Below, piece by piece: positions 5,105 to 43,266 of a DNA stretch of 64,000 bases (its first letter is position 1; each line of letters starts with the position of its first letter). Under the pieces are notes generated by a model, which ran no database searches, was not told the origin of the DNA, and was given only the letters and a program-made list of their open reading frames with translations. Source of the DNA: a candidate division WWE3 bacterium (GTDB lineage: Bacteria; Patescibacteriota; WWE3; UBA101185; UBA10185). Made by a program: the position numbers and the translations under genes. The stretch covers positions 366,773 through 430,772 of the forward strand of contig JBPOHV010000001.1 of the NCBI GenBank assembly GCA_052035175.1, in the 5' to 3' direction.

Positions 5105-5114
5105 CATCTCTGTA

Positions 5115-5206
5115 GATATGTCTACCTGCGGTATAGCACTATGTGCTAACCTTGCTGGTATAGCACTATTTGCTTATCATACTGATATGTCTACCTGCGG
5201 TATAAT
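5115..5206 (+). promoter_or_regulatory. Promoter region of the ABC-F gene with the same GGTATAGCACTAT motif and direct repeats
   Basis: GATATGTCTACCTGCGGTATA duplicated (5115-5135 and 5183-5203). GGTATAGCACTAT duplicated (5130-5142 and 5157-5169). TATAAT at 5201-5206. Confidence 0.5.
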
Positions 5207-5212
5207 CAGCGC

Positions 5213-19174: not shown

Positions 19175-19194
19175 GGGCTAAGCCCGGCTTAGCC
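19175..19194. repeat. GC-rich palindromic element GGGCTAAGCC-CGG-CTTAGCC
   Basis: Near-perfect 9-bp inverted repeat in AT-rich intergenic DNA. Member of a five-copy family. Confidence 0.7.
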
Positions 19195-19796: not shown

Positions 19797-19817
19797 AGGC
19801 TAAGCCGGGCCTAGCCC
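19797..19817. repeat. GC-rich palindromic element AGGCTAAGCC-GGG-CCTAGCCC
   Basis: Same family. Lies on the other side of the methyltransferase gene. Confidence 0.7.
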
Positions 19818-24659: not shown

Positions 24660-24838
24660 TTAAAAATTGTACGCCACCTCTGTGTAGTCCAACAAGTGCG
24701 AAGTCTAACTCCTAACTTAGCAGTCACTATTTGGTCACATAGTAGGGACATGGTAACAGAGCCTATAGTATATGATAAATTTAACAATTTAACTTAGTCA
24801 GCCTTTATAGGCTGACTTAAAACTATAGGAGAAATCTC

Positions 24839-25087
24839 ATGCTATCTGAAATCGCAACAAAAATGCTCCGGAGCGGAAATCCACTCCAAATGACTACAGC
24901 TGTCATTCTCGTAATGGATGAGCTGTATAGCGCATTGCGCGACCTGCAGAAAAAGGAACACCTTTCAAGTAAAGTTCTTTTGGGATTTGCAAAGCAGCAA
25001 TTGCAGATTGCAGACGCCCTTGGATTTACTGTCCACAGTTGTCGTGTCACTCCCTTAGAAGCATCGGATCCCGTATCCGAACAATAA
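24839..25087 (+). CDS. small hypothetical protein (82 aa) with strong SD
   Basis: AGGAG 7 nt upstream of the ATG. GC-richer than its surroundings. Preceded by the hairpin GTCAGCCTTTATAGGCTGAC. Confidence 0.35.
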   Translation: MLSEIATKMLRSGNPLQMTTAVILVMDELYSALRDLQKKEHLSSKVLLGFAKQQLQIADALGFTVHSCRVTPLEASDPVSEQ

Positions 25088-25640
25088 ACTGTTTGAGCTG
25101 CCTATACGACAGCTTAGCAAGGTATTAACATACAGTTAGTCCGATAAGTTTACTTATCAGATTTTCCGAAACCTTGCCATTTCAAAATGACTTACCGCGT
25201 ACCTCGGATCTGTCCTTGATAGGGACAGTCCTTTGAATCATATGTACCTCTTTTAGTTAGTAAAGAAAATATTTTTCTGGTCTTAATATTGTTATTTACA
25301 CTAATTAACCTTAACGATTATTCGGAAGATCTGTTCTGTATTCTCATAAACTGTTATGTTGTTTTCTAGGCGGTATAAGAATTATTCATAAGCTTTATCG
25401 TCATCAACTTGTTTAGGTATTTAGCTTTTTTGTTAGTTTGCAGCTTGTTTTATCTGCATCTACATATGTACTTGTAAAACTATGGGCATAATGCCTATTT
25501 ATAAGAATTTCCATAGATATCACATATCGATTTAGATTTACAAAAGGTACAGATCTATAGAAGTACAGTACTTGGTGAGGACAGATCCCTTAGCAGAATC
25601 CCCTCTTGCATGGGGGAAAGCATTTGTGTACCATCTATGT

Positions 25641-32535: not shown

Positions 32536-32547
32536 ATGTTATTAGAG

Positions 32548-32573
32548 TACCGAAAGTAACCCGAATATGTCAA
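32548..32573 (-). promoter_or_regulatory. lexA promoter with candidate SOS operator (ATATTCGGGTTAC-TTTCGG) between -35 TTGACA and the -10
   Basis: Minus-strand reading: TTGACATATTCGGGTTACTTTCGGTACTCTAAT...ATG. The TTCGGG core is shared with the uvrB and uvrA regions. Confidence 0.5.
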
Positions 32574-32588
32574 GGGGGAATTTTATAT

Positions 32589-32612
32589 AGGGCTAAGCCT
32601 GGTTAAACCCTA
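32589..32612. repeat. GC-rich palindromic element GGGCTAAGCC-TGG-TTAAACCC
   Basis: Same family as 19175 and 19797. Left boundary of the GC-rich cassette. Confidence 0.65.
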
Positions 32613-32687
32613 TATTAGTCTGATACAAATTGTACTATAATTGTACTATTTGGCTGTTTTGGCTTATAATTGCTTTAGCAATCTTCT

Positions 32688-32707
32688 GGGATGCGGAGGC
32701 GTCAAGG
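32688..32707. repeat. Left arm of 20-bp inverted repeat flanking the small secreted-protein ORF
   Basis: GGGATGCGGAGGCGTCAAGG. Its partner is CAAGGATGCCTCCGCATCCCC at 33058-33078 (18 of 20 complementary). Confidence 0.65.
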
Positions 32708-32722
32708 AAAAGGAGGTTTGAT

Positions 32723-33046
32723 ATGAAATTCATTAAGGGTGCAGTTTTTGCACTCTTTTTAATTCTCATAGCTGGGATGGCGGTGCAAGCCGCTGCCCAG
32801 CCTGCACGCGATAGCGTGCAAATCACACTCGCCAGCGGTGTCGCTGGTGAGATCACTGAAAAAACTGTGAGCTGCGGAAAAGTGCAGCTTACTTTTTTTT
32901 CAGACAATACACTTTTCGCCCCTGGAGTACGGGGCGAAAGAGGAAAGCTGATTTTCGAAGGGGGAATTGAACTTACGGTCACCGTCCAAAACTTGGACGG
33001 TGGTATAAAGTACACTGCGACCTCAGTCGGGTGTACTTTTAATTAA
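32723..33046 (+). CDS. Small secreted protein (signal peptide, two Cys), GC-rich cassette gene
   Basis: Strong RBS AAGGAGG 6 nt upstream of the ATG. Signal peptide MKFIKGAVFALFLILIAGMAVQAAAQ. The ORF is flanked by a 20-bp inverted repeat. Confidence 0.5.
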   Translation: MKFIKGAVFALFLILIAGMAVQAAAQPARDSVQITLASGVAGEITEKTVSCGKVQLTFFSDNTLFAPGVRGERGKLIFEGGIELTVTVQNLDGGIKYTATSVGCTFN

Positions 33047-33057
33047 GTTTCAAATCA

Positions 33058-33078
33058 CAAGGATGCCTCCGCATCCCC
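33058..33078. repeat. Right arm of the inverted repeat flanking the small secreted-protein ORF
   Basis: See 32688-32707. Confidence 0.65.
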
Positions 33079-33091
33079 CTTCGTACTAATA

Positions 33092-33111
33092 GGGTTTAAC
33101 CAGGTTTAACC
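33092..33111. repeat. GC-rich palindromic element GGGTTTAACC-AGG-TTTAACC (reverse orientation of 32589 copy)
   Basis: Near reverse-complement of 32591-32610. Confidence 0.6.
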
Positions 33112-33190
33112 TTTTAATCTTATTATCCAATTTATGCTAATCATTGCTACTAGCGTATGCTATTAGAAGTAAACATAGGTAGTTGTGCGA

Positions 33191-33213
33191 CAGGCTTAGC
33201 CTGGCCTAGCCCT
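33191..33213. repeat. GC-rich palindromic element AGGCTTAGCC-TGG-CCTAGCCC
   Basis: Same family. Right boundary, just upstream of uvrB. Confidence 0.65.
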
Positions 33214-33227
33214 TAGGTCATATGTTA

Positions 33228-33250
33228 GAATGTTCGGGATATGTTCGATA
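33228..33250 (+). promoter_or_regulatory. Candidate SOS operator at uvrB: GAATGTTCGGGATATGTTCGATA, overlapping -10 TAGAAT and the start codon
   Basis: TTCGGG core plus a second GTTCG half 11 bp downstream. TAGAAT at 33226-33231. Confidence 0.45.
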
Positions 33251-35316
33251 TTTTTTCATCTTATTCACCAACAGGAGATCAGCCAACGGCAATAGACCAG
33301 CTTACTAAAGGAGTACTTGGTGGTGTTAAAAACCAAACATTATTAGGAGTAACCGGTAGCGGTAAAACATTTACAATAGCAAACGTTATAAAAAATGTTT
33401 CAAAACCTACACTTATACTTTCACACAATAAAACTTTGGCTGCACAGCTTTATCAAGAGTTCAGAGAATTTTTTCCGAATAATGCAGTTGAATACTTTGT
33501 AAGCTATTATGACTATTATCAGCCAGAAAGTTATATCCCATCTACAGATACTTATATAGAAAAAGACGCAGATATAAACGACATGATTGATCGACTTAGG
33601 CTGTCTGCGACTACATCGTTGATGACGCGCAAAGACGTTATTGTAATTTCTTCAGTTTCTTGCATTTATAATCTTGGTTCACCTGCAGAATATTCAAAAA
33701 TGGCTATCGAAGTACGTAAAGGTATGAAGATACGTGCTGTCGATTTACTCAAAAGACTTTCACAAATATATTACGAACGTAATGAGTTTGAGTTTAAGCG
33801 CGGTACATATCGTGTGCGCGGTGATGTCATAGATATATTTCCAGCATATGTAGAGTATGCAGTGCGGTTGGAAATATTTGATGATATTTTGGTAAATGCT
33901 TCATTCTTTGATCCTTTGACTGGTGACGCGTTAAATACTGTAGGTGCTCCAAGTACAAGACAAGGCAGCCATACTCGGTCTGTTACTCAGGATGAAAAAG
34001 ATTATGCTCTGCATCGTTTGAATGAAAGTGGGCTTATTTTAATATATCCAGCCAAACACTATATTGCTGCAGAAGATAGGCGAGAATCGGCAATTGAACA
34101 AATTAAATCTGATTTAGCTTTACGCTTACAAGACTTGAAGCAGCAAGGAAGAAGCATCGAAGCTTATCGCCTTGAGCAAAGAACAAATTATGATTTGGAA
34201 ATGATGGAAGAAATAGGTTACTGCAAAGGCATTGAAAACTATTCTAGATATTTCGACGGACGAAACCCTGGTGATACACCTTATTCTTTGTTGGAGTTCT
34301 TTCCAAAAGATTATTTGTTAGTAATAGATGAGTCACATATAACTGTACCTCAAGTAAGAGGTATGTATAACGGTGATCGTTCGCGTAAGCAAACACTTAT
34401 AGATTATGGGTTTAGACTGCCATCGGCTTTGGATAACAGGCCACTAAACTTCACAGAATTTATGTCAAAGCTCAATCAAGCTATATATATAAGCGCGACT
34501 CCTTCAGAATGGGAGTTGAGTATGTCTGCAGGACATGTAGCTGAGCAATTGATTAGGCCAACAGGTATAGTTGACCCGGAAGTTACTATTTTGCCAACTC
34601 AAAATCAGATACACGATTTGTTAGATCGCATTAAAGCAAAAGTTGCAAATAATCAAAGAGTTTTGGTGACTACTTTGACTAAAAAAATGTCTGAAGAGTT
34701 GGCATCTTTTTTGACTGAAAAAGGTATTAAGGTTACTTATTTGCATTCTGATGTAGAAACTTTGGAACGGACAAATATTTTGGATGATTTGCGAAAAGGT
34801 GAGTATGACGTTTTGGTAGGCATAAACCTTTTGCGCGAAGGTTTGGATTTACCAGAAGTTTCTTTGGTAGCAATTTTGGATGCTGATAAAGAAGGCTTCT
34901 TGAGATCTGATACTTCCTTGATTCAAACTATGGGACGTGCGGCGCGCCACTTGCAAGGCGAAGTCGTGATGTATGCTGATAGTGTAACTGGCAGTATGCA
35001 GCGTGCGCTCGACGAAGTGGCGCGCCGCCGTGAAATCCAAAGAGCATACAACGAAAAACACCATATATCTCCAACTCAAATCTTCAAACCAATACGCCAA
35101 AAGTTAATCGATGAATATGTCGAGGAAATTGTTAATAAAGCTAAGAAATTTGAGACCGATGTAGATTATAAATCTATGCCACCAAAAGAAGTAAATAAAG
35201 AGGTAAAACGCATGGAAGCCGAAATGAAACTTGAAGCCGAGAATTTAAACTTTGAACGCGCAGCTGCTTTGCGAGATAAAATAAGAGAAATTAAAGGCTA
35301 TTTATCCAAGCAATAG
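33241..35316 (+). CDS. uvrB: Excinuclease ABC subunit B
   Basis: N-terminus SPTGDQPTAIDQL, Walker A GVTGSGKT, helicase motifs, C-terminal UVR domain (AENLNFERAAALRDKI). Confidence 0.95.
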   Translation: MFDIFSSYSPTGDQPTAIDQLTKGVLGGVKNQTLLGVTGSGKTFTIANVIKNVSKPTLILSHNKTLAAQLYQEFREFFPNNAVEYFVSYYDYYQPESYIPSTDTYIEKDADINDMIDRLRLSATTSLMTRKDVIVISSVSCIYNLGSPAEYSKMAIEVRKGMKIRAVDLLKRLSQIYYERNEFEFKRGTYRVRGDVIDIFPAYVEYAVRLEIFDDILVNASFFDPLTGDALNTVGAPSTRQGSHTRSVTQDEKDYALHRLNESGLILIYPAKHYIAAEDRRESAIEQIKSDLALRLQDLKQQGRSIEAYRLEQRTNYDLEMMEEIGYCKGIENYSRYFDGRNPGDTPYSLLEFFPKDYLLVIDESHITVPQVRGMYNGDRSRKQTLIDYGFRLPSALDNRPLNFTEFMSKLNQAIYISATPSEWELSMSAGHVAEQLIRPTGIVDPEVTILPTQNQIHDLLDRIKAKVANNQRVLVTTLTKKMSEELASFLTEKGIKVTYLHSDVETLERTNILDDLRKGEYDVLVGINLLREGLDLPEVSLVAILDADKEGFLRSDTSLIQTMGRAARHLQGEVVMYADSVTGSMQRALDEVARRREIQRAYNEKHHISPTQIFKPIRQKLIDEYVEEIVNKAKKFETDVDYKSMPPKEVNKEVKRMEAEMKLEAENLNFERAAALRDKIREIKGYLSKQ

Positions 35317-35337
35317 TATTATTAGTATAATAATCAT

Positions 35338-36741
35338 ATGCCTAACCACACAAAGTATGGTGATCTTTTTGGAGATAGTATGCCGGCAGAGGCGCATAGA
35401 CCTGCCAGATATTATTTTGCGCATGGTCAGCCGGTAGAGCGTTGGGAGGCTGAGCTGTTGGTTACTCCAGAAGTTCTAGATATTACGCAGAAGTTAGCTG
35501 GTGATGGCTCTGCAGTTTTAGCTGGAGGTACTGGCTTATATGCTACCTATGGCGGAAATATTCATAAAAGAGATTACGATATTACAGTTGCTGATTTACC
35601 TTTAACTGCCAACTCCACATTAGCATCATTAGGTTATGCGTATGTTTCTGGTGATTATGCTCAGCGATACAAAAAGGGGAATGTAACAATAGATATATTA
35701 AGTGCTAAACGTGTAGCTGATGCTAGTATACATGAGTTAACTAGCTTAAAATCCCAGTTACTTCAATTATCACTGCCAGGGGATGTAATGTCTAAAGCAC
35801 TTGAGCAAATTGTACGTTCAGAAAAGCTGTTGCTATCCAATGTGCTCGAATATCAAATGCGTGCGAATTGTTTTTTCAATATCGAGTTATTGGGGTATGG
35901 AGTTGATAATGCAGGGGCTATTTCTGTATTTGATGCAGGGCACATCCTTCAGGATCCAAATGAGATACACAGCTTGGATCATGCTTATAAAGCTGGCACG
36001 TTGCCGCATGCTCCTAGATACACCGTAAATACGTATTCAACGCGTAATACATTCACACAATTAATTACTGCTACAGCTGGTTCTGAACACCCACTAATGT
36101 TCACCTCAGATATGATTATGTGGTACCTAGAGAATTATGGTAGAAGCATGAGTAAATGTGCAAAAAATGATGCATCTCTTCCTTACAGTCAGTCGGCGTA
36201 TATCGACTATACTACTATTATAGATCTTGTTTTAAAAGGTGACGCACCATTTAAAGTTTCTAAGGATCTTTTAGATAAATTGCAAACTCGAGGTTTTTCA
36301 TCTTTAGAGAGTTTTGTACGTGCAAATATATGTCGCCATTTTGTGCAAGCTTTTATTTATAACCCAGAAAAGGCTATAGAGTTTTTATTTACTGAAGGGG
36401 ATATTGTTGCACCAGCACTTATGCCTAGTGTAGCATTAGGTGAAGGTGATCATAGAAGGACTACACGTGTAAGCATGTTGAGTTTGGCGGAAAAGGCCTT
36501 TCCTAAAAAGAAAGTTTGGGCGAGAGTTCCTGAATTTAGCTCCTCGCATCATCTTCAAACTGAAAAGTATGTACACTTACCGCAAAGTGTAGAACAGGCA
36601 CTGGCATTTTTATTGGTTGGGTTAAATGCAGGTGATTCTGTTGATGAGCTTTTAGCTTATTGGGCATCGATTGAAGGATTTAAAATGAATATAGATAAAA
36701 CTGAAATTGAAAAAGCTATGGTAGCTTTTAAAAAGTTATAA
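35338..36741 (+). CDS. hypothetical protein, possible nucleotidyltransferase-fold domain
   Basis: Segment LAGGTGLYATYGGNIHKRDYDITVAD fits the minimal pol-beta NTase pattern [GS]-x(9-13)-DhDhhh. The remaining ~380 aa have no recognisable motif. Locally GC-richer. Confidence 0.45.
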   Translation: MPNHTKYGDLFGDSMPAEAHRPARYYFAHGQPVERWEAELLVTPEVLDITQKLAGDGSAVLAGGTGLYATYGGNIHKRDYDITVADLPLTANSTLASLGYAYVSGDYAQRYKKGNVTIDILSAKRVADASIHELTSLKSQLLQLSLPGDVMSKALEQIVRSEKLLLSNVLEYQMRANCFFNIELLGYGVDNAGAISVFDAGHILQDPNEIHSLDHAYKAGTLPHAPRYTVNTYSTRNTFTQLITATAGSEHPLMFTSDMIMWYLENYGRSMSKCAKNDASLPYSQSAYIDYTTIIDLVLKGDAPFKVSKDLLDKLQTRGFSSLESFVRANICRHFVQAFIYNPEKAIEFLFTEGDIVAPALMPSVALGEGDHRRTTRVSMLSLAEKAFPKKKVWARVPEFSSSHHLQTEKYVHLPQSVEQALAFLLVGLNAGDSVDELLAYWASIEGFKMNIDKTEIEKAMVAFKKL

Positions 36742-36743
36742 TT

Positions 36744-37982
36744 ATGAAGCCTGTAGTATCTAATGCTTTACTCGAGCGTTTTTCTACTATGCTTATCGAT
36801 CAGGCTAGAGATTTGGATACCAGTATCACAACTTTTCGTGGTAGTTGGGTAACCTCTATTTTGATGTATTTAGCCAGAGAGCGCCGACATACGTATCTTA
36901 AGAATGCACAGGTAATTTTGCCTATCAGTGTTAAAAGCTTATATACAGATAAGAATGCAACGTTTGGTAATACATATAATTATTACAAAGAATTCTATAA
37001 AAATTTGACTATATCAACTCACACTGACTTAGAGAGTTTAATTTATGCACTTACGCATGGCGCTGATTACAAAGTTACGATATTGGCTAACGGGTTTGGT
37101 ACTCTTTTACAAACTAACAACACACATTTCAGTGCAGCAATCGCTTTAAGAGAGTTGAAAAAAATAAATCCTAAAAATGTGAGCTTTATCTTTGTTAATA
37201 CTGTAGAAATTTATCCTACCGATATACAACAAATCCCTGGATTGATGTCTAGCTTCTTACAAAACATGCGTTGGCAGCAAGACTTTGTTATTGATAAGGA
37301 AAGTGTAGCTAATATTTTATGTAATGAAACAGGTAAGCGAGAGTATGAAGAGAACGATTTATTAATATCAAAAGTATTTGAATACGCATATAATGATCCT
37401 TCTGTAGTGCAAATCATAGGAAAAAATCTATTAATTGACGCAGACTTTGAGAGGCAACTTTTGTCTGCTGGTAGCATTGCTGACCTATATGAAGTGATAG
37501 GTAAAGATAAGCTTGATTCACGTTATCGCCAGATTTTGAGCAGCCTAAAAAAAGAATCAAGGCAAAGTTTGCAGTATTATCTTGAATCTGACAATTCTGC
37601 GCATTTACCGACGATTTACTTGTTAAAAACAAATTTACTTGTTAGGAGTCATGATAGCTATAAGGCAATGAACCCTCTTTTTGATCACTATTTAAAGTCT
37701 GTAGACTTTCACTCAGCAGACATTTATGAATCAAGCGTTGATAAGCTAACGCGTGCATTAACTGGTCAAGAGCAGCAACTCTTTAATCTGTTACAAGTTA
37801 AACATGGCAAATTTGCTACCAAAGACGAAATCGCTCAAACTATTTGGGGAGATACTTGGCAAGATGTGTATAGTGACTGGGCAATTGATAAGCTTGTCTC
37901 TACACTACGCAAAAAACTTGTAGACAATAATTATGAAAAGACAATAAAAGCAGTGAGAAACAAAGGTATTATGTTAGTTTGA
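36744..37982 (+). CDS. hypothetical protein with C-terminal OmpR/PhoB-type winged-helix DNA-binding domain
   Basis: C-terminus LTGQEQQLFNLL...TKDEIAQTIWGD...LVSTLRKKL...KAVRNKGIMLV matches the Trans_reg_C pattern. The N-terminal ~320 aa are unknown. Confidence 0.5.
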   Translation: MKPVVSNALLERFSTMLIDQARDLDTSITTFRGSWVTSILMYLARERRHTYLKNAQVILPISVKSLYTDKNATFGNTYNYYKEFYKNLTISTHTDLESLIYALTHGADYKVTILANGFGTLLQTNNTHFSAAIALRELKKINPKNVSFIFVNTVEIYPTDIQQIPGLMSSFLQNMRWQQDFVIDKESVANILCNETGKREYEENDLLISKVFEYAYNDPSVVQIIGKNLLIDADFERQLLSAGSIADLYEVIGKDKLDSRYRQILSSLKKESRQSLQYYLESDNSAHLPTIYLLKTNLLVRSHDSYKAMNPLFDHYLKSVDFHSADIYESSVDKLTRALTGQEQQLFNLLQVKHGKFATKDEIAQTIWGDTWQDVYSDWAIDKLVSTLRKKLVDNNYEKTIKAVRNKGIMLV

Positions 37983-38034
37983 ACTTGGTTAGCTAAAAAA
38001 TCCTAGTAAGAAAAGAAATACACCTGCATCTATC

Positions 38035-38058
38035 AAGCAGGTTTTTATAATAAAGTCG
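38035..38058 (+). terminator. Rho-independent terminator
   Basis: CCTGC-ATCTATCAA-GCAGG followed by TTTTTAT, directly after the 36744..37982 gene. Confidence 0.6.
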
Positions 38059-38167
38059 CTAAAATGTTTATTGGCTTCAAGCTATTTACTCATTTTCGCT
38101 CAGCCGCCACGCCTTGCTATAGGATAACATCTTTTCTAATAATCTTATGTTCAAAAGGAGTTAGCAA

Positions 38168-38467
38168 ATGAAAACCGGCTGGTTTTTTGCAATAATCTTC
38201 GCAGTAGTGGCTTTAATCATAGCGACACATCTAGCTTATCAACAGCCATATCTGCAAACCCTGGATCTTTATCCGGGGTCTCACGTCAAATTAAATAATG
38301 TGGATTTTTTCATGGATGAAGAAACTGGTTTTTCTGCTTCGGCTTCATGCTTGGGATCTCTGAAGCTTTATGGTGACCAGAAAGATCATTATGGATTTAC
38401 GTGTAACAACATCGACTTTGATGTTGTGTACAGCGAATCTGTAACAAAGATTTCTTGGGCTCCCTAG
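38168..38467 (+). CDS. small membrane-anchored protein (island gene 1)
   Basis: RBS AAAGGAG 7 nt upstream of the ATG. N-terminal TM WFFAIIFAVVALIIATHLAY. 99 aa. Confidence 0.4.
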   Translation: MKTGWFFAIIFAVVALIIATHLAYQQPYLQTLDLYPGSHVKLNNVDFFMDEETGFSASASCLGSLKLYGDQKDHYGFTCNNIDFDVVYSESVTKISWAP

Positions 38468-38473
38468 GAAAAG

Positions 38474-38542
38474 AGCGGGTTTGGACTCGTAGATACAGAT
38501 TAGCTTTGGCTAGTTTTTGTTTACGGTCCGACCCGCTTTTTT
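38474..38542 (+). terminator. Long-loop rho-independent terminator
   Basis: AGCGGGT...(inner GGAC..GTCC stem)...ACCCGC followed by TTTTTT. Confidence 0.5.
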
Positions 38543-38778
38543 AGTTGTGTTAGTAAGCATTTTTCTACTCAGTTTTACTCAAGCCGATATAACCTATAGC
38601 TCGTATCATATCTTCATACAATTGAATAGAACTTTGACATCCAAATACTTTTCACTAGAACTCTAGAAGGAGGCTTTTTAGGCTTAACTGCGCTGTCGAG
38701 CTTATAAAGCCTTCTTTTATGAGAAGGTTCCCCAATGTGGGGAAATGCTAATAATCGCCGCAGTTGTGGCCAAGTCAA

Positions 38779-39076
38779 GGAGCTTGATATGTCTCGAATC
38801 AATGAACTTTTCACAAATCCAGTTGTAACCTTTTTGTGGTTTTTAATCCCGACCGGGGTACTCTGGTTCTTTGGGGTTGTGGCCCTTGGTATGGGTAGCA
38901 GTCTTGGAGATCTCTTGTTCGGAGCTGTCTTTGGCGGCGCCGTAACTGCATTCTTTTTTACAGTGTCTATGGAGGCGAAAAGTCGTGGGGAGCCCGGTTG
39001 GTTTTACACCTTCTTGATCTTTGGGCTCATTTCCATTGCAATTCCCATCACTGCTTTCATTAAAGCAGCTTATTAG
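38779..39076 (+). CDS. small 3-TM membrane protein (island gene 2)
   Basis: RBS AAGGAG 7 nt upstream of ATG 38779. Hydrophobic throughout. Preceded by the hairpin TTCCCCAATGTGGGGAA. Confidence 0.45.
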
Positions 39077-39085
39077 GCTGTACCT

Positions 39086-39148
39086 AGGTGGGCGAGGTGC
39101 TCATGGATAAAGATCTTAAGATCTCACACCATGGCACCTCGCTCACTA
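39086..39148 (+). repeat. Structured hairpin repeat, copy 1 (GGTGGGCGAGGTGC...GCACCTCGCTCAC)
   Basis: Imperfect stem of about 17 bp with a roughly 22-nt loop containing the GATCTTAAGATC palindrome. Homologous to 39999-40059, with compensatory substitutions between the copies. Confidence 0.7.
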
Positions 39149-39264
39149 AATCAATTACTAGAAAAAAGTTTGTACTAGATTTCAAAAAATGAAAGTTAGT
39201 ATGAGCTTTCTTCTGGAAAAATCTAGATGAAAGGTATTATGTTGCGTTGAGTAAGGAGTTAGTA

Positions 39265-39972
39265 ATGTCTCAGAAAATCTTGTCTTTTGGTCTCGCCCTG
39301 TTCGTGGCCTTTATGGCCGCTTGCAGCGGAGGTGGAGAACCGCAGTCTAGTGTAGTAGTAACTGCATATGATTGCAAAGGCGATGTCTTGGATCTCCAAA
39401 ATCGAGACCAGTTTATCCTAAACGGTCAAGAAGTTTTATTTGCGGATCAAGGATTCGCAAATTATCAATTTCTTGACACAGACTGGAACCAGCTCGCTGC
39501 TGGTCCAGATAAAGTTCCGTCAGATTCAATTCATTTAGATGATGAAAAAGTCTCGTTGGCCGGATCTGACTGGAAAATCACAAACATAGGTACCACTGTA
39601 GAGGGGAAAAGCAGAATATGCTTTGAGGAATGGAACGTGAATTACATTCCTCCAACAGTGACGCCAACGCCAACCCCGGTTGGGGAAATTGGTCTGGCGC
39701 TAACCCCAACTCCAGCTTATTCCTGTCCCCAAGGCGAATTCAACTATGTTGAAATCGAAGCTGGGAATCCCCATTACTCTTCTCTTGATGGTGATACCAC
39801 TGTGGTTATCGAAAAAAATACAAGTGGTTTTTCCATTGAGGTGGTCGGAGAGTTTTACGTCAGTGGAGACGTAAGTATTGGTTATGGAGAAGAAGCCATA
39901 ATTGGCGATTACCGATTCCACATCATTCGTGGTTATGAGGACGCATTATGTGTCCTTGTGACTCCTCCTTAA
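39265..39972 (+). CDS. Putative lipoprotein (island gene 3)
   Basis: RBS AAGGAGTTAGTA then ATG. Signal plus lipobox-like FVAFMAAC|SGG. Pro/Thr linker PPTVTPTPTPVGEIGLALTPTP. Confidence 0.5.
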   Translation: MSQKILSFGLALFVAFMAACSGGGEPQSSVVVTAYDCKGDVLDLQNRDQFILNGQEVLFADQGFANYQFLDTDWNQLAAGPDKVPSDSIHLDDEKVSLAGSDWKITNIGTTVEGKSRICFEEWNVNYIPPTVTPTPTPVGEIGLALTPTPAYSCPQGEFNYVEIEAGNPHYSSLDGDTTVVIEKNTSGFSIEVVGEFYVSGDVSIGYGEEAIIGDYRFHIIRGYEDALCVLVTPP

Positions 39973-39998
39973 CCTAAGGAGTAAAACTAAGGAAATCA

Positions 39999-40059
39999 AG
40001 GTGGGCGAGATGCTCGTGAAGAAGATCGCATGATCAGATATCACGGCATCCGCCCACTA
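39999..40059 (+). repeat. Structured hairpin repeat, copy 2 (GGTGGGCGAGATGC...GCATCCGCCCAC)
   Basis: Same architecture as 39086-39148. The GGTGC/GCACC to GATGC/GCATC and CATGG/CCATG to CGTG/CACG changes keep the pairing intact. Confidence 0.7.
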
Positions 40060-40153
40060 AACCAAGAAGAAAGTTTCTATCAGCCTTTGGATCTCTGAAA
40101 GCAAAGATTGGTAGAAGCCTTCTGCTAAGAAGGTAAACCACAAGGAGGCAGTA

Positions 40154-40603
40154 ATGTTTTTTGTAGCGATATTGCGTAAGTTTTGGTGGATCTTGCCTGT
40201 GGCAATGGTGATTATGTTAATCGCTATGGCTATGGGAGTAGGAGATCCCGCTCCGGTTTTACCAGAGACAGAAACACCCGCCAATGAAGTTAGTGCATTA
40301 TGTACTGATTTCTTCGGCTGGTCCGTTGTGGATAGTACTGACTTTGTCAGCGCTGAATATGTGAATGGCGACATTTACGTAGAGTGGACCAATAGTGGTC
40401 CGAATCCACGCATTATGGGGGTGAACTTTTATGGCTGGATCGTCAAAGATCCACAGCCTGGTGTACATCTGGAAATTCCTCAGGGTATTCTGCTCCTCAG
40501 TGACGATGGACAAATATTGTCCATCTTACCTACAGGGCAGGATCCAGTGGTGATTGAAATAGGCACAACCTGCCTGCAAAAGCCACTGCCTACCAGAGGA
40601 TAA
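40154..40603 (+). CDS. small exported protein (island gene 4)
   Basis: RBS AAGGAGG 5 nt upstream of the ATG. N-terminal TM/signal WWILPVAMVIMLIAMAMG. 149 aa. Confidence 0.45.
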   Translation: MFFVAILRKFWWILPVAMVIMLIAMAMGVGDPAPVLPETETPANEVSALCTDFFGWSVVDSTDFVSAEYVNGDIYVEWTNSGPNPRIMGVNFYGWIVKDPQPGVHLEIPQGILLLSDDGQILSILPTGQDPVVIEIGTTCLQKPLPTRG

Positions 40604-40606
40604 ATT

Positions 40607-40671
40607 GAGCGGTAGATCGCTGTAGATAGTCCAAATCAGGACGCAATCTCTACGCGATCTACCGCTTTTTC
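40607..40671 (+). terminator. Rho-independent terminator with large structured loop
   Basis: GAGCGGTAGATCGC...GCGATCTACCGC followed by TTTTTC. Perfect 13-bp stem. Confidence 0.65.
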
Positions 40672-40786
40672 AGTTTTATACTAATGACTCATCAAATGAT
40701 ACTAGTTCTGCTTAACTCAGTTTCACTCATGCCCTCATACCTCATAGTGCTAGTATGCCGCTATTAATCTGATTAAAGGAGATGCC

Positions 40787-40990
40787 ATGTTAGTACTAAC
40801 TAAGAATACCGAACTTACCTTGTTTGGTATAAAAATTACGTTTGTAAATAACAGTTTGGATTTTTCAGCTGCATCCGAACTGGATGTTTTGTATGTCCCA
40901 GATTCCAATCCAAGAATTGTAAATGTTTGTTATCGGAATCGATCAATTTTTGTTGTGCAGCTACACGACATGCTTATTATTTCATGGTAG
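40787..40990 (+). CDS. small hypothetical protein (island gene 5, 67 aa)
   Basis: RBS AAAGGAG 5 nt upstream of the ATG. No TM helix. Confidence 0.3.
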   Translation: MLVLTKNTELTLFGIKITFVNNSLDFSAASELDVLYVPDSNPRIVNVCYRNRSIFVVQLHDMLIISW

Positions 40991-41048
40991 TTACCTTCAA
41001 TACCCAACAGTTTGGCATAAAGACCAAACTACAAATAAGGAGAATCTG

Positions 41049-41303
41049 ATGAAACGCTTTATGAAAAACCCGTTGATAACCTGGCTCGTACTTCTTGTTT
41101 TACTAACACCATTTTGGTGGTTAGCAAATGGAGGGGGCCGTGAGATAGATCTACCGCTAGCTCTGTCGGGGGTTAATGCATACATATTAATGTATGCATT
41201 GATTACTCGTGAAAAGGGTGACGCGCTCTTTTTGTCATTAGTCTATGCCGTTGCAGGACTTGTGATGCTAGGGTTTTCTTGTTATCTGATTATTATAGGG
41301 TAG
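41049..41303 (+). CDS. small 2-3 TM membrane protein (island gene 6)
   Basis: RBS AAGGAG 6 nt upstream of ATG 41049. Begins MKRFMKNPLITWLVLLVLLTPFWW. Confidence 0.4.
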   Translation: MKRFMKNPLITWLVLLVLLTPFWWLANGGGREIDLPLALSGVNAYILMYALITREKGDALFLSLVYAVAGLVMLGFSCYLIIIG

Positions 41304-41310
41304 AAAGAAA

Positions 41311-41373
41311 AAGGCGGTAGGTTTGCTGAGTACATTAATCAATGATTGATGCGCTCGCGATCTACCGCTTTTT
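41311..41373. terminator. Bidirectional rho-independent terminator sharing its 3' arm with the 40607-40671 terminator
   Basis: GAAAAAGGCGGTAG...GCGATCTACCGC followed by TTTTTC. Sits between convergent genes. The 18-nt 3' arm is identical to the 40654-40671 arm. Confidence 0.6.
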
Positions 41374-41379
41374 CTTTTC

Positions 41380-42783
41380 TTATTTATAGTAATCGTTTAA
41401 TTGACTATATGGCACTATCTTCATATCTGGGTTTTGTGTTAGCAAGTCTTTTTGTAACTGCAGATCTAACGTATCATCTCTGAATATCACAGCTTTTATA
41501 TCTTTACTAGAAACATGCATATTTCTTGGTTGTTTCGTATAACCTTTACTTGGATGCAACACGCCTTCTACGTATACACCATTGCCCTTCATTGCGCCTG
41601 CTTCAGGCGTTCCTGGTAAATATGTATAGCTCATGTGTTTTTCTATTTCAAATACTTCTCGGAATGCATGTACCATTCTTGCATCAACAAGTGAAAGCAT
41701 TTTGATTAAAGTTCCATCTGCAAATTCATGTCGTCCTATTGGTTCTCCTCGATCACCATATGTATATTCAACTCTTAAGGCTAGTGCTTCGTTGAAATGA
41801 ACAAAGATAGGTCTTTTTTTGCCCCATTCGTAGCGCTCGCCAGTTTTTTTTGAAATAAGTGCCCCGTACAATACAGAGTAAGGTTCGTTATTAACGGTTG
41901 CTTCTAATTGGGCTGGTGCGGTTGCATTCGAAAAAATAATAGTGTCGTATATTTCTAGTATCTGTTGTTCTAGTTCGTCTACTTGCATTGTGTCTATTAA
42001 TTCCGCTGCTTGAGAGTCCACTATCTCAATAGGTGAATCGCCAAGAGTGTGTTTTAATAATTCAATTGCTTCCCTCTGTTCGTTGGAATCAGCAATATTG
42101 TTGTATATTGTTTCTACCGCTTTTTCTATTTCGAGTTTTATTTTGTTTTGTATTTTTTCGCGTGTTAAAAACTTGCCAACTTTTTCAATAACTGCTATAG
42201 CCGCATTTTCACTTGTTTGCTTATTAATAGCAGTAGTTATGTTTTTTTCTGTAAATAGTGGTTCTTCTTGTATATTCTCAACTAGATGTATAAACTGAAT
42301 AACGGTTTGATTAGGCGCAGAAAAGTTTTCTAAGAAAAGTTCGTTTTTAGCCTCATCACAATCAACATCAGCGATGTTTACGCCTTTAACCTGTATTTGT
42401 ACACCACTCTCAGACTTAACCAGGCTATATTCATCTGGTAATCTTTTTTTTAATATTTCGATATCAGTATTTAATTTGGCAAATAGTATGGAGTGATCGC
42501 TTGCATTTGTTTTAAAAGAAATAGACATGAGTTCATTATCAGGAGTTTCCATTCTTATACTAGGTCCTGCTCCTAGTGTATCGATATATACTTTACACGC
42601 TTTAACCAAAGTGTCTGCGTGTGCAGTTTCATCTTCTATTACTTGTGTAAAATTCGCATACCTAGCAATTTTTTTGGTGTATGTTTCTAATAGTTCCAAC
42701 TTTAAATTTTCTTGGCTTGTTTGAACCTCATCAGCAGTGTTTTCAATATGAACTTCTTTTTCACTGGTTATATCATCAAGCAT
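41380..42783 (-). CDS. hypothetical protein (467 aa, acidic N-terminal half)
   Basis: Long ORF with no recognisable catalytic motif. Co-directional with the upstream 94-aa gene and separated from it by 8 bp. Confidence 0.5.
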   Translation of the reverse strand: MLDDITSEKEVHIENTADEVQTSQENLKLELLETYTKKIARYANFTQVIEDETAHADTLVKACKVYIDTLGAGPSIRMETPDNELMSISFKTNASDHSILFAKLNTDIEILKKRLPDEYSLVKSESGVQIQVKGVNIADVDCDEAKNELFLENFSAPNQTVIQFIHLVENIQEEPLFTEKNITTAINKQTSENAAIAVIEKVGKFLTREKIQNKIKLEIEKAVETIYNNIADSNEQREAIELLKHTLGDSPIEIVDSQAAELIDTMQVDELEQQILEIYDTIIFSNATAPAQLEATVNNEPYSVLYGALISKKTGERYEWGKKRPIFVHFNEALALRVEYTYGDRGEPIGRHEFADGTLIKMLSLVDARMVHAFREVFEIEKHMSYTYLPGTPEAGAMKGNGVYVEGVLHPSKGYTKQPRNMHVSSKDIKAVIFRDDTLDLQLQKDLLTQNPDMKIVPYSQLNDYYK

Positions 42784-42790
42784 GTAAGGT

Positions 42791-43075
42791 TTATGCTTCT
42801 CCTTGTACTAGTTTTCTCCAGTCAGTTTTTGATGGAGCAGCCGTTGGGGTTGCTTGTTTTTCATCTTTAGTGGGCTCTTCTGTTAAACCTTCAAGTTTTA
42901 TGTCAGCTGCTTCTGCTGTTTCGGCTTGGACTTCTGGTGTTCCTTGACGCATCATAGCTGCTATTCTGTTCATCGTTTTTGAGGTAATTATCGTTTCTGG
43001 TTGTTTTTCATTTGGTGTTTCATTTGTACCTGTAACTTCCGAAAGTCTTTCTAATGGCATATATTTTCCTTTCAA
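42791..43075 (-). CDS. small acidic hypothetical protein (94 aa)
   Basis: First gene of the putative two-gene operon. Low-complexity Glu/Thr/Ala/Pro-rich sequence. Confidence 0.4.
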   Translation of the reverse strand: MKGKYMPLERLSEVTGTNETPNEKQPETIITSKTMNRIAAMMRQGTPEVQAETAEAADIKLEGLTEEPTKDEKQATPTAAPSKTDWRKLVQGEA

Positions 43076-43135
43076 TTTAATATATGTAAATATGATATTC
43101 TATTTTGGTGACTTCTTCTATGAGTGAAACTGACT

Positions 43136-43155
43136 TCACAAACCCGAACATATAC
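43136..43155. promoter_or_regulatory. Candidate SOS operator (CCCGAACATAT / ATATGTTCGGGTTTG) in the uvrA divergent intergenic region
   Basis: Same ATGTTCGGGTT core as lexA and uvrB. About 65 bp upstream of the minus-strand 94-aa gene and about 120 bp upstream of uvrA. Confidence 0.4.
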
Positions 43156-43266
43156 CGTATACTGTTTTGGTCACATTTATTGCGGCAGCATTCTTTTCGT
43201 CACTAAGTCCTCGCTTTGCTGCGGAATGGTTCCTCAATAATGTTGCCGCTAATAAATTTAACTAAT

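Follow-up and report, generated by a model that had tools for sequence, protein, structure and literature searches.

Between the uvrB and uvrA genes of a candidate division WWE3 bacterium, an uncultured member of the Candidate Phyla Radiation (CPR), a row of small genes is interrupted by two related hairpins, A1 and A2, and it is the structure, evolution and probable role of these two elements that are considered here. The DNA analysed, called the window throughout, is a 64-kb section of contig JBPOHV010000001.1. It is a low-GC (~35%) housekeeping stretch encoding glycosyltransferases, recO, a mraZ–mraW–ftsI cluster, enolase, lexA, uvrB, uvrA and uvrC, together with murG–ftsQAZ genes, ribonucleotide reductase and ileS, and its closest UvrB matches (63–71% identity) come from metagenome-assembled genomes of Saccharibacteria, WWE3 and other Patescibacteria. 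The variable island between uvrB and uvrA occupies 35317..43215; its 38–42 kb portion, with a GC content of ~41% against ~35% for the window, contains five small + strand genes for predicted membrane proteins, secreted proteins or lipoproteins. Each small island gene is followed by a long hairpin of 58–78 nt (H0, H1, A1, A2, B1 and B2), and the housekeeping spacers of the window are mostly devoid of such long hairpins.

Three of these genes are separated by A1 and A2. Upstream of A1 lies p113 (38735..39076, + strand), which encodes a small multi-pass membrane protein and probably starts at 38789 (AAGGAG–N6–ATG) rather than at 38735; p235 (39265..39972, + strand), encoding a predicted lipoprotein with a lipobox that ends FMAAC, lies between the two hairpins; and p149 (40154..40603, + strand), the product of which has an N-terminal transmembrane segment, lies downstream of A2. 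The search for a homologue of p113 found none, and no full-length homologue of p235 was found among 5.8 billion proteins. Exactly one homologue exists for p149, namely P0013 (85% identity), encoded on L115, a 1,492-bp contig that comes from a related strain and belongs to an NCBI metagenome assembly; in it only the C-terminal half of p235 is kept. Paralogy is limited to the spacers and does not extend to the genes on either side; as the proteins of the island show no similarity to one another, gene duplication was rejected as the origin of the repeat.

Fold and covariation of the A hairpins

Hairpin A1 (39086..39154, + strand; stem-loop at 39087–39147) begins 10 nt past the TAG stop codon of p113 (39074–39076), and its paralogue A2 (39999..40065, + strand; stem-loop at 40000–40058) begins 27 nt past the TAA of p235 (39970–39972); both were recognised by folding and score 96.1 and 86.5 bits, respectively, with a covariance model (CM). 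As the original prediction had it, the two elements open with AGGTGGGCGAG, found at 39086 and 39999 but nowhere else in the 64 kb; 0.09 occurrences are expected even when matches with at most one mismatch are counted. The shared ending CACTAAAYCAA is likewise present in both, closing at 39154 and 40065; the ends first given for them, 39148 and 40059, mark the end of the stem, because the named tail extends 6 nt further. Homology between the copies then runs on for ~25 nt 3′ of the hairpin, with GAARAAAGTTTSTA at 39161–39174 and 40066–40079, and sequence comparison thus delimits a 3′ extension of each repeat unit on the + strand, at 39155..39174 for A1 (TTACTA followed by GAAAAAAGTTTGTA) and at 40066..40079 for A2 (GAAGAAAGTTTCTA).

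The fold of A1 comprises 14 bp, a U bulge, 5 bp, a 4×4 internal loop, 5 bp and a UUAA loop, followed by the single-stranded tail AAATCAA, and A2 has the same architecture with an additional bulged A and the tail AAACCAA. The common fold is therefore a basal stem of 13–14 bp, a one-base U bulge, 5 bp, a 4×4/5 internal loop, an apical stem of 4–5 bp (GAUC/GAUC) and a tetraloop. The suggestion that both copies would fold better than shuffled controls held clearly, with −40.3 kcal/mol (z −9.9) for A1 and −34.5 kcal/mol (z −7.1) for A2, and 0/200 shuffles as good. Both strands fold about equally well, whether as RNA or as DNA, and these near-equal energies make folding energy uninformative for telling strand or molecule apart. 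Two other explanations of the elements were tried and set aside: clustering of Dam sites, as GATC occurs 213 times against 209 expected, and a signal for stop-codon read-through or recoding, as the stop codon is TAG in one case and TAA in the other, and the frame behind p235 is closed after 3 codons.

The shared structure of A1 and A2 contains 24 pairs, and the compensating changes that had been proposed between the copies are found at three of them, where both arms have changed (G–C/A–U at columns 12/52, 18/47 and 21/44); among the remaining pairs, one G–C has become G–U and one is lost to the bulged A. When the eight observed stem substitutions were placed at random with the observed transition bias, a simulation used because the software's own shuffle control is powerless with two sequences, the chance of at least three compensated pairs was 7.5e-4 and that of at most one broken pair 0.02. 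Unpaired columns are also about twice as diverged between the paralogues as paired ones (8/21 against 9/48).

A third copy, the orthologue of A2, lies on L115 at 654–721 (CM 80.5 bits; −32.7 kcal/mol, z −6.7), within a contig that aligns with window positions 39637–40679 at 91% identity. Compared with A2, this copy has AGT for GAG in the 5′ arm, a 3′ arm one base longer and the loop TCAA for GCAT, the effect of which on the stem is to turn G–C into A–U at 9/55, to restore the bulged A to G–C at 10/54 and to introduce a U–C mismatch at 11/53. In the alignment of all three sequences 5/24 pairs are doubly changed and 94% of cells are paired, a proportion that falls to 25–48% when the partner is shifted by 1–3 columns as a control. 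The A2 hairpin differs by 10–13% between the strains, where local synonymous divergence is 0.08 (p235 C-terminus) and 0.25 (p149), and the 26 nt preceding it are identical; since the divergence of the hairpin is close to the local synonymous rate, its sequence drifts near the neutral rate while pairing stays. Further copies had been named as the place where uncompensated stem changes would count against the proposal; the family passes this check, the L115 copy having a single such mismatch. G–U pairs occur on the sense strand at 2/62 (all three copies) and 6/58 (A1), which would be A–C mismatches on the other strand, and this asymmetry lends weak support to folding of the sense strand.

Whether pairing was kept by selection is a separate matter. 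Pairing is retained in the paralogues and in the L115 orthologue, as the claim of selection on the stem rather than on the sequence implies, but these comparisons do not separate selection from templated mutation between the arms. A1 and A2 could on this account be a functionless duplicated palindrome, derived from an old terminator or from an element of the repetitive extragenic palindrome (REP) or miniature inverted-repeat transposable element (MITE) type, the arms of which are matched by template-switch or gene-conversion-type mutation. In keeping with such an origin, there are two adjacent copies only, their homology extends into the spacer, folding is strand-symmetric, and the change from GAG to AGT in L115, with a matching change on the other arm, resembles a templated event. 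We nevertheless regard it as unlikely, given that the U bulge (column 16) and the 4×4 internal loop are kept in all three copies and have not been ‘corrected’, that the new U–C mismatch and the bulged A persist, that both copies share the same position and orientation relative to stop codons, and that the 64-kb window contains no terminal inverted repeats (TIRs) or target-site duplications, no REP-associated tyrosine transposase (RAYT) and no dispersed copies. REP elements, their bacterial interspersed mosaic elements (BIMEs) and hairpin MITEs such as Correia and ERIC, which alter mRNA stability when co-transcribed, are similarly repeated extragenic imperfect palindromes oriented as genes. A1 and A2 differ from them in having two adjacent copies only and neither a REP head nor TIRs; the flanks GTACCT/TTACTA and AAATCA/GAAGAA show no target-site duplication, no Y1 transposase (RAYT) was found among the window proteins, and the A hairpin, which begins AGGTGGG, measures 61 nt compared with 20–40 nt for REP and 100–150 nt or more for MITEs.

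The family appears to be narrowly distributed. A full-sensitivity search of the window with a CM built from A1 and A2 found only these two, so that the two-copy claim holds for the 64 kb, and the next-best matches were three other long island hairpins (H0, B1 and B2; E 0.4–2). No A-type copy was found with the CM in eight related uvrB loci, in 72 unrelated loci (1.27 Mb) or in the contexts of homologues of the island winged-helix (wHTH) protein. A pattern with the exact ends had 0 matches in GTDB representative genomes and one chance match in JGI metagenomes, on a GC-rich contig without a hairpin, and a looser pattern gave 26 chance matches in IMG/VR, none of them homologous. Rfam yielded 0 matches at the gathering threshold and, at E<=10, only sub-threshold miRNA-type chance matches, and no tRNA-like elements were found. 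The element is currently best described as belonging to an already known kind, the gene-end or intercistronic mRNA stem-loop, so far confined to one CPR lineage.

A1 and A2 as proposed intercistronic RNA stem-loops

That neither stem is followed by a T-run, as had been remarked of them, is confirmed by the tails ACTAAATCAATTAC and ACTAAACCAAGAAG. Like canonical intrinsic terminators, A1 and A2 are GC-rich RNA hairpins placed shortly after a gene, and they fall into the size and architecture class of H0, B1 and B2 in the same island, but they have no U-rich tract of the kind (~7–9 nt) that directly follows the stem of such terminators, their tails reading ACUAAAUCAAUUAC and ACUAAACCAAGAAG where H0, B1 and B2 carry U5–6, and no significant similarity to the B family. 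H0 (38469..38546, + strand; −43.5 kcal/mol) follows p99 (38168–38467, + strand), ends in UUUUUU and is weakly B-like; B1 (40606..40676, + strand; −36.8 kcal/mol, z −7.0) follows p149 and is itself followed by UUUUU; and its paralogue B2 (41309..41378, + strand; −39.2 kcal/mol), which follows p84 (41049–41303, + strand) and has U5–6, looks bidirectional because an A-run and a U-run flank it. Their U5–6 ends therefore mark H0, B1 and B2 as canonical-type terminators with unusually long stems, which a simple terminator scan missed because their loops are large. A single superfamily of A and B hairpins was considered and rejected: in arm-by-arm local alignments against shuffles, A1/A2 and B1/B2 are each related (p < 0.003), whereas A versus B is not significant.

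Because canonical terminators are in use in the same island, the missing U-tract on A1 and A2 is meaningful. Tested RNA polymerases fail to terminate at hairpins without a U-tract (PMC3993855), and consecutive protective hairpins lacking a U-tract have been documented inside operons, as at malE–malF and in menBCE (PMC5927463). Since U-less hairpins do not terminate in the systems tested, the simplest layout of the region is one of three units, namely p99 ending at H0, p113–A1–p235–A2–p149 ending at B1, and p84 ending at B2, a layout with which the earlier idea of hairpins ‘segmenting the island operon’ would agree. No sigma-70-like site scored in either A spacer, although the sigma-70 model may not be that of the host. 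Both hairpins are oriented as the genes are.

The interpretation that we favour, while holding it tentatively, is that A1 and A2 are sense-strand intercistronic RNA stem-loops within the p113–p235–p149 unit, serving as exonuclease barriers or processing sites. They would fold in the sense mRNA, in the spacers of a unit running p113, A1, p235, A2, p149 that would end at the hairpin-plus-U-tract terminator B1, and RNA polymerase would pass through both of them because they have no U-tract. In the transcript the ~24-bp stems could stop 3′-to-5′ exonucleases or, in an alternative role, provide sites for cleavage by a double-strand-specific (RNase III-type) enzyme or in the adjacent A-rich single strand; by either route each upstream cistron would acquire a stable 3′ end and a half-life of its own. 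What was duplicated or recombined to give the two copies was probably an intergenic module and not the genes. That the three genes share a transcript, that the hairpins fold at the RNA level and that they act as barriers or processing sites are all inferences.

The closest likeness is to the protective 3′ stem-loops found between cistrons, such as the malE–malF REP hairpin and that at menB/menC (Dar & Sorek 2018, PMC5927463), which are also stable U-less hairpins placed after a stop codon between co-oriented genes, may number more than one per operon, and keep their structure between related strains; A1 and A2 are indeed stable hairpins without a U-tract between co-oriented cistrons. They depart from most described examples in their longer stems (~24 bp over 61 nt), in being mutually paralogous with conserved flanking tails, in being known from sequence alone, and in their host, an uncultured CPR bacterium.

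A processing role has a precedent of another kind in the hairpins cut by RNase III between cistrons, for example at phage T7 early mRNA sites such as R1.1. These are irregular, ~60 nt long, interrupted by an internal loop and about two helix turns in extent, all of which applies to the A hairpins as predicted. The predicted RNA helix of A1 and A2, 19–20 bp coaxially stacked plus an apical stem of 4–5 bp, stands close to the RNase III yardstick of ~20 bp or more of near-continuous helix. The window contains no rnc gene; the only one seen was on a distant CPR contig (L112).

A different fate of the transcript is envisaged if A1 and A2 are true terminators that act without a U-tract, partially or with the help of factors (NusG, NusA or Rho), so that each small gene would form its own unit. 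The hairpins are GC-rich and lie 10–27 nt past stop codons, every other small island gene is followed by a hairpin of like size and architecture, and CPR transcription is unstudied, all of which lends this possibility some credit. It seems rather unlikely to us all the same, as the same island has canonical U-tract terminators within a few hundred bases, no promoter-like site scored 3′ of either hairpin, and the bacterial polymerases tested need a U-tract, including one from a lineage once credited with U-less terminators (PMC3993855).

The elements might, alternatively, face forwards, as 5′-leader elements of the downstream genes that contain a protein-binding site or an attenuator-like switch. 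The 5′ arm AGGTGGGCGAG, in which conservation is perfect, does face the downstream gene, as do the tail CACTAAAYCAA and GAARAAAGTTTSTA; the first ~75 nt of the spacer 3′ of A2 show ~97% conservation between strains, and most of the changes in this spacer lie near the ribosome-binding site (RBS). A leader function is very unlikely, though: there is no alternative (antiterminator) fold and no U-tract, A1 and A2 stand 88–110 nt from the start codons and leave the RBS untouched, and Rfam gives no match at E<=10 beyond those of the chance miRNA type. An upstream open reading frame (ORF) inside the hairpin fails as well; the candidate, with a Shine–Dalgarno-like AGGUGG and GUG/AUG at column 12, runs for 29, 7 and 29 codons in the three copies, in differing frames.

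Several points weigh against placing A1 and A2 as stem-loops inside one transcript. Each gene could form its own unit, as the promoters of this lineage are uncharacterised; either strand folds almost as well, as RNA or as DNA; and the G–U asymmetry concerns two columns only. The family consists of three sequences, two of them near-identical, and the compensation among them can come from templated mutation between the arms of a palindrome. Perfect conservation of the 5′ basal arm and the tail between A1 and A2 hints, moreover, at recognition of specific sequence, for which a pure barrier would have no need.

Variability of the island and its neighbouring hairpins

The order lexA–uvrB–(spacer)–uvrA is kept in relatives, where the spacer measures 1.3–6.5 kb compared with 7.9 kb here, and none of the nine proteins of the 35317–43215 spacer has a tblastn match in any relative's uvrB–uvrA spacer. 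Across this CPR lineage the spacer (35317–43215; L004–L010) behaves as a hypervariable hot spot: its length ranges from 1.3 to 7.9 kb and no genes are common between genomes, whereas synteny holds for lexA, uvrB and uvrA. Searched against Pfam, PHROGs, PADLOC and NCBIfam, the nine proteins gave no match except one winged-helix domain. A phage or defence origin of the island was also rejected, there being no PADLOC or viral-contig relatives and a single wHTH match in PHROGs.

One rearrangement concerns the B hairpins, the 3′ arm and T-run of which are identical over 19/19 nt (40653–40671 and 41356–41374). L115 skips from 40679 to 41355, so that 676 bp including p84 are absent there (segment 40680..41354, + strand, bounded by the B1/B2 repeat), with the junction inside the arm common to B1 and B2. 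The B hairpin of L115 (1266–1345) is ~30% different in its interior but has the same architecture and sense-strand G–U pairs; B-type hairpins evolve as A-type ones do.

This indel invites the idea that A1 and A2 are DNA joints of a cassette-like island, in which gene-sized modules come and go through a hairpin-recognising recombinase or by recombination between repeats. Unrelated orphan genes are parted by related hairpins, B1 and B2 exactly bound a gene-sized indel of 676 bp between two strains with its junction in the shared 19-nt arm, the uvrB–uvrA spacer is hypervariable across relatives, and modules of 600–900 bp with hairpins of 58–75 nt recall integron arrays. Yet integrase, transposase and reverse transcriptase were all absent from the 64 kb, a search among the window's proteins that covered tyrosine recombinases; the attC R″/R′ boxes and the spacer and extrahelical-base layout are missing; and the L115 homology break near A1 and A2 falls at 39637, inside p235 and away from any hairpin. 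In addition, B1 and B2 resemble ordinary terminators, a 19-nt direct repeat beside a palindrome suffices for spontaneous deletion, and protein homologue searches gave no sign of these genes moving between genomes. We therefore consider DNA joints distinctly improbable as an account of A1 and A2, and more improbable still the wider proposal that the A and B pairs both mark where cassettes are joined in a surface-protein island of a CPR genome, with recombination unrelated to attC/IntI and the 676-bp indel as one event.

The likeness to integron attC sites, including clusters of attC sites lacking an integrase (CALINs), deserves a closer look. Those sites are likewise imperfect hairpins (57–141 nt), found within a variable array at the 3′ ends of small ORFs that are unrelated but co-oriented, with a variable hairpin interior and, as for the B pair, one-module indels at the hairpin. 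The A elements differ in lacking RYYYAAC/GTTRRRY boxes, their top strand running from AGGTGGG… to …CACTAAAYCAA and their bottom strand from TTGRTTTAGTG… to …CCCACCT, and in having a continuous basal stem of 13–14 bp with one bulge and no unpaired central spacer or extrahelical bases. No integron integrase is encoded in the window (CALINs also lack one), and three of the island hairpins are plain terminators.

Further observations concern the island genes. Between the strains, p235 is a mosaic: its C-terminal half, from the IPPTVTPTPTP linker onwards, is ~97% DNA-identical, and its N-terminal half shows no DNA similarity (L115 1–292 compared with window 39265–39636). Just upstream of p113 lies H1 (38664–38719), a 56-nt imperfect palindrome after a possible 49-aa signal-peptide-like ORF (38517–38666). 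A 19-nt block, ACTCAGTTTYACTCAWGCC, is 17/19 identical at 38567–38585 and 40715–40733, ~20 nt past the end of H0 and ~40 nt past that of B1, which places it where the proposed second and third units begin; it is a candidate promoter or operator, although a convincing −35/−10 is missing. At the uvrB-proximal end, p467a and p412 (35338–37982) form an overlapping pair, an unknown protein followed by one with a C-terminal OmpR-type winged helix without a receiver domain. A similar overlapping pair, of 405 and 375 aa, occurs in another CPR contig (L111 2000–4341), where the p412 homologue is ~30% identical in a comparison that covered p412 only; the pair may be a conserved two-gene module.

Other structured sites in the window and wider significance

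A GC-rich 19-nt dyad, GGCTWAGCC-N-GGYYWARCC, occurs four times in the window (19176–19194, 19798–19816, 32591–32609 and 33193–33211), always intergenic, adjoining a methyltransferase/ogt pair and both sides of the lexA–uvrB spacer; the 9-mer GGCTWAGCC has five occurrences compared with ~0.1 expected on a rough base-frequency estimate. As the dyad is not conserved in the lexA–uvrB spacers of relatives, it is perhaps not a lineage-wide SOS box but an operator or small repeat specific to this genome. The same spacer (32536–33240) contains a small secreted-protein ORF (32723–33046) within nested long-range inverted repeats, GGGATGCGGAGGC at 32688 and GCCTCCGCATCCC at 33065, with the dyad motif further out. 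This ORF is rich in hairpins (−53.9 kcal/mol for 32771–32860), including a terminator-like one with T8 that lies within the frame at 32856–32903. The whole could be a module that was inserted or can be inverted, or else the apparent ORF could be a structured RNA.

Inside uvrB (34939–35028; −47.9 kcal/mol) there is a perfect 14-nt GC-only inverted repeat, GCGGCGCGCCACTT and AAGTGGCGCGCCGC, 62 nt apart, and the equivalent region of a relative (L007 4521–4610) is also strongly structured. Two long spacer hairpins, at 130–220 and 5105–5212, share the motif TGGTATMGCACTAT (190–203 and 5156–5169), the first upstream of a glycosyltransferase gene and the second between rsmB-like and ABC-F genes. Finally, the 912 bp at 24660–25571 contain no ORF of at least 90 aa and no Rfam match, but two strong minus-strand hairpin regions (24851–24940 and 25091–25180).

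Almost nothing is known about how CPR bacteria, or Patescibacteria, end, process and stabilise their transcripts. Should A1 and A2 be mRNA barriers only, they would be a routine addition to a known class; they are also a case, backed by statistics, in which gene-end hairpins have evolved with their structure preserved. The hairpin-repeat-bounded indel shows how a surface-protein island in a reduced genome can gain or lose single genes, and the presence of U-tract and U-less hairpins side by side in one island provides concrete targets for 3′-end mapping in uncultured organisms.

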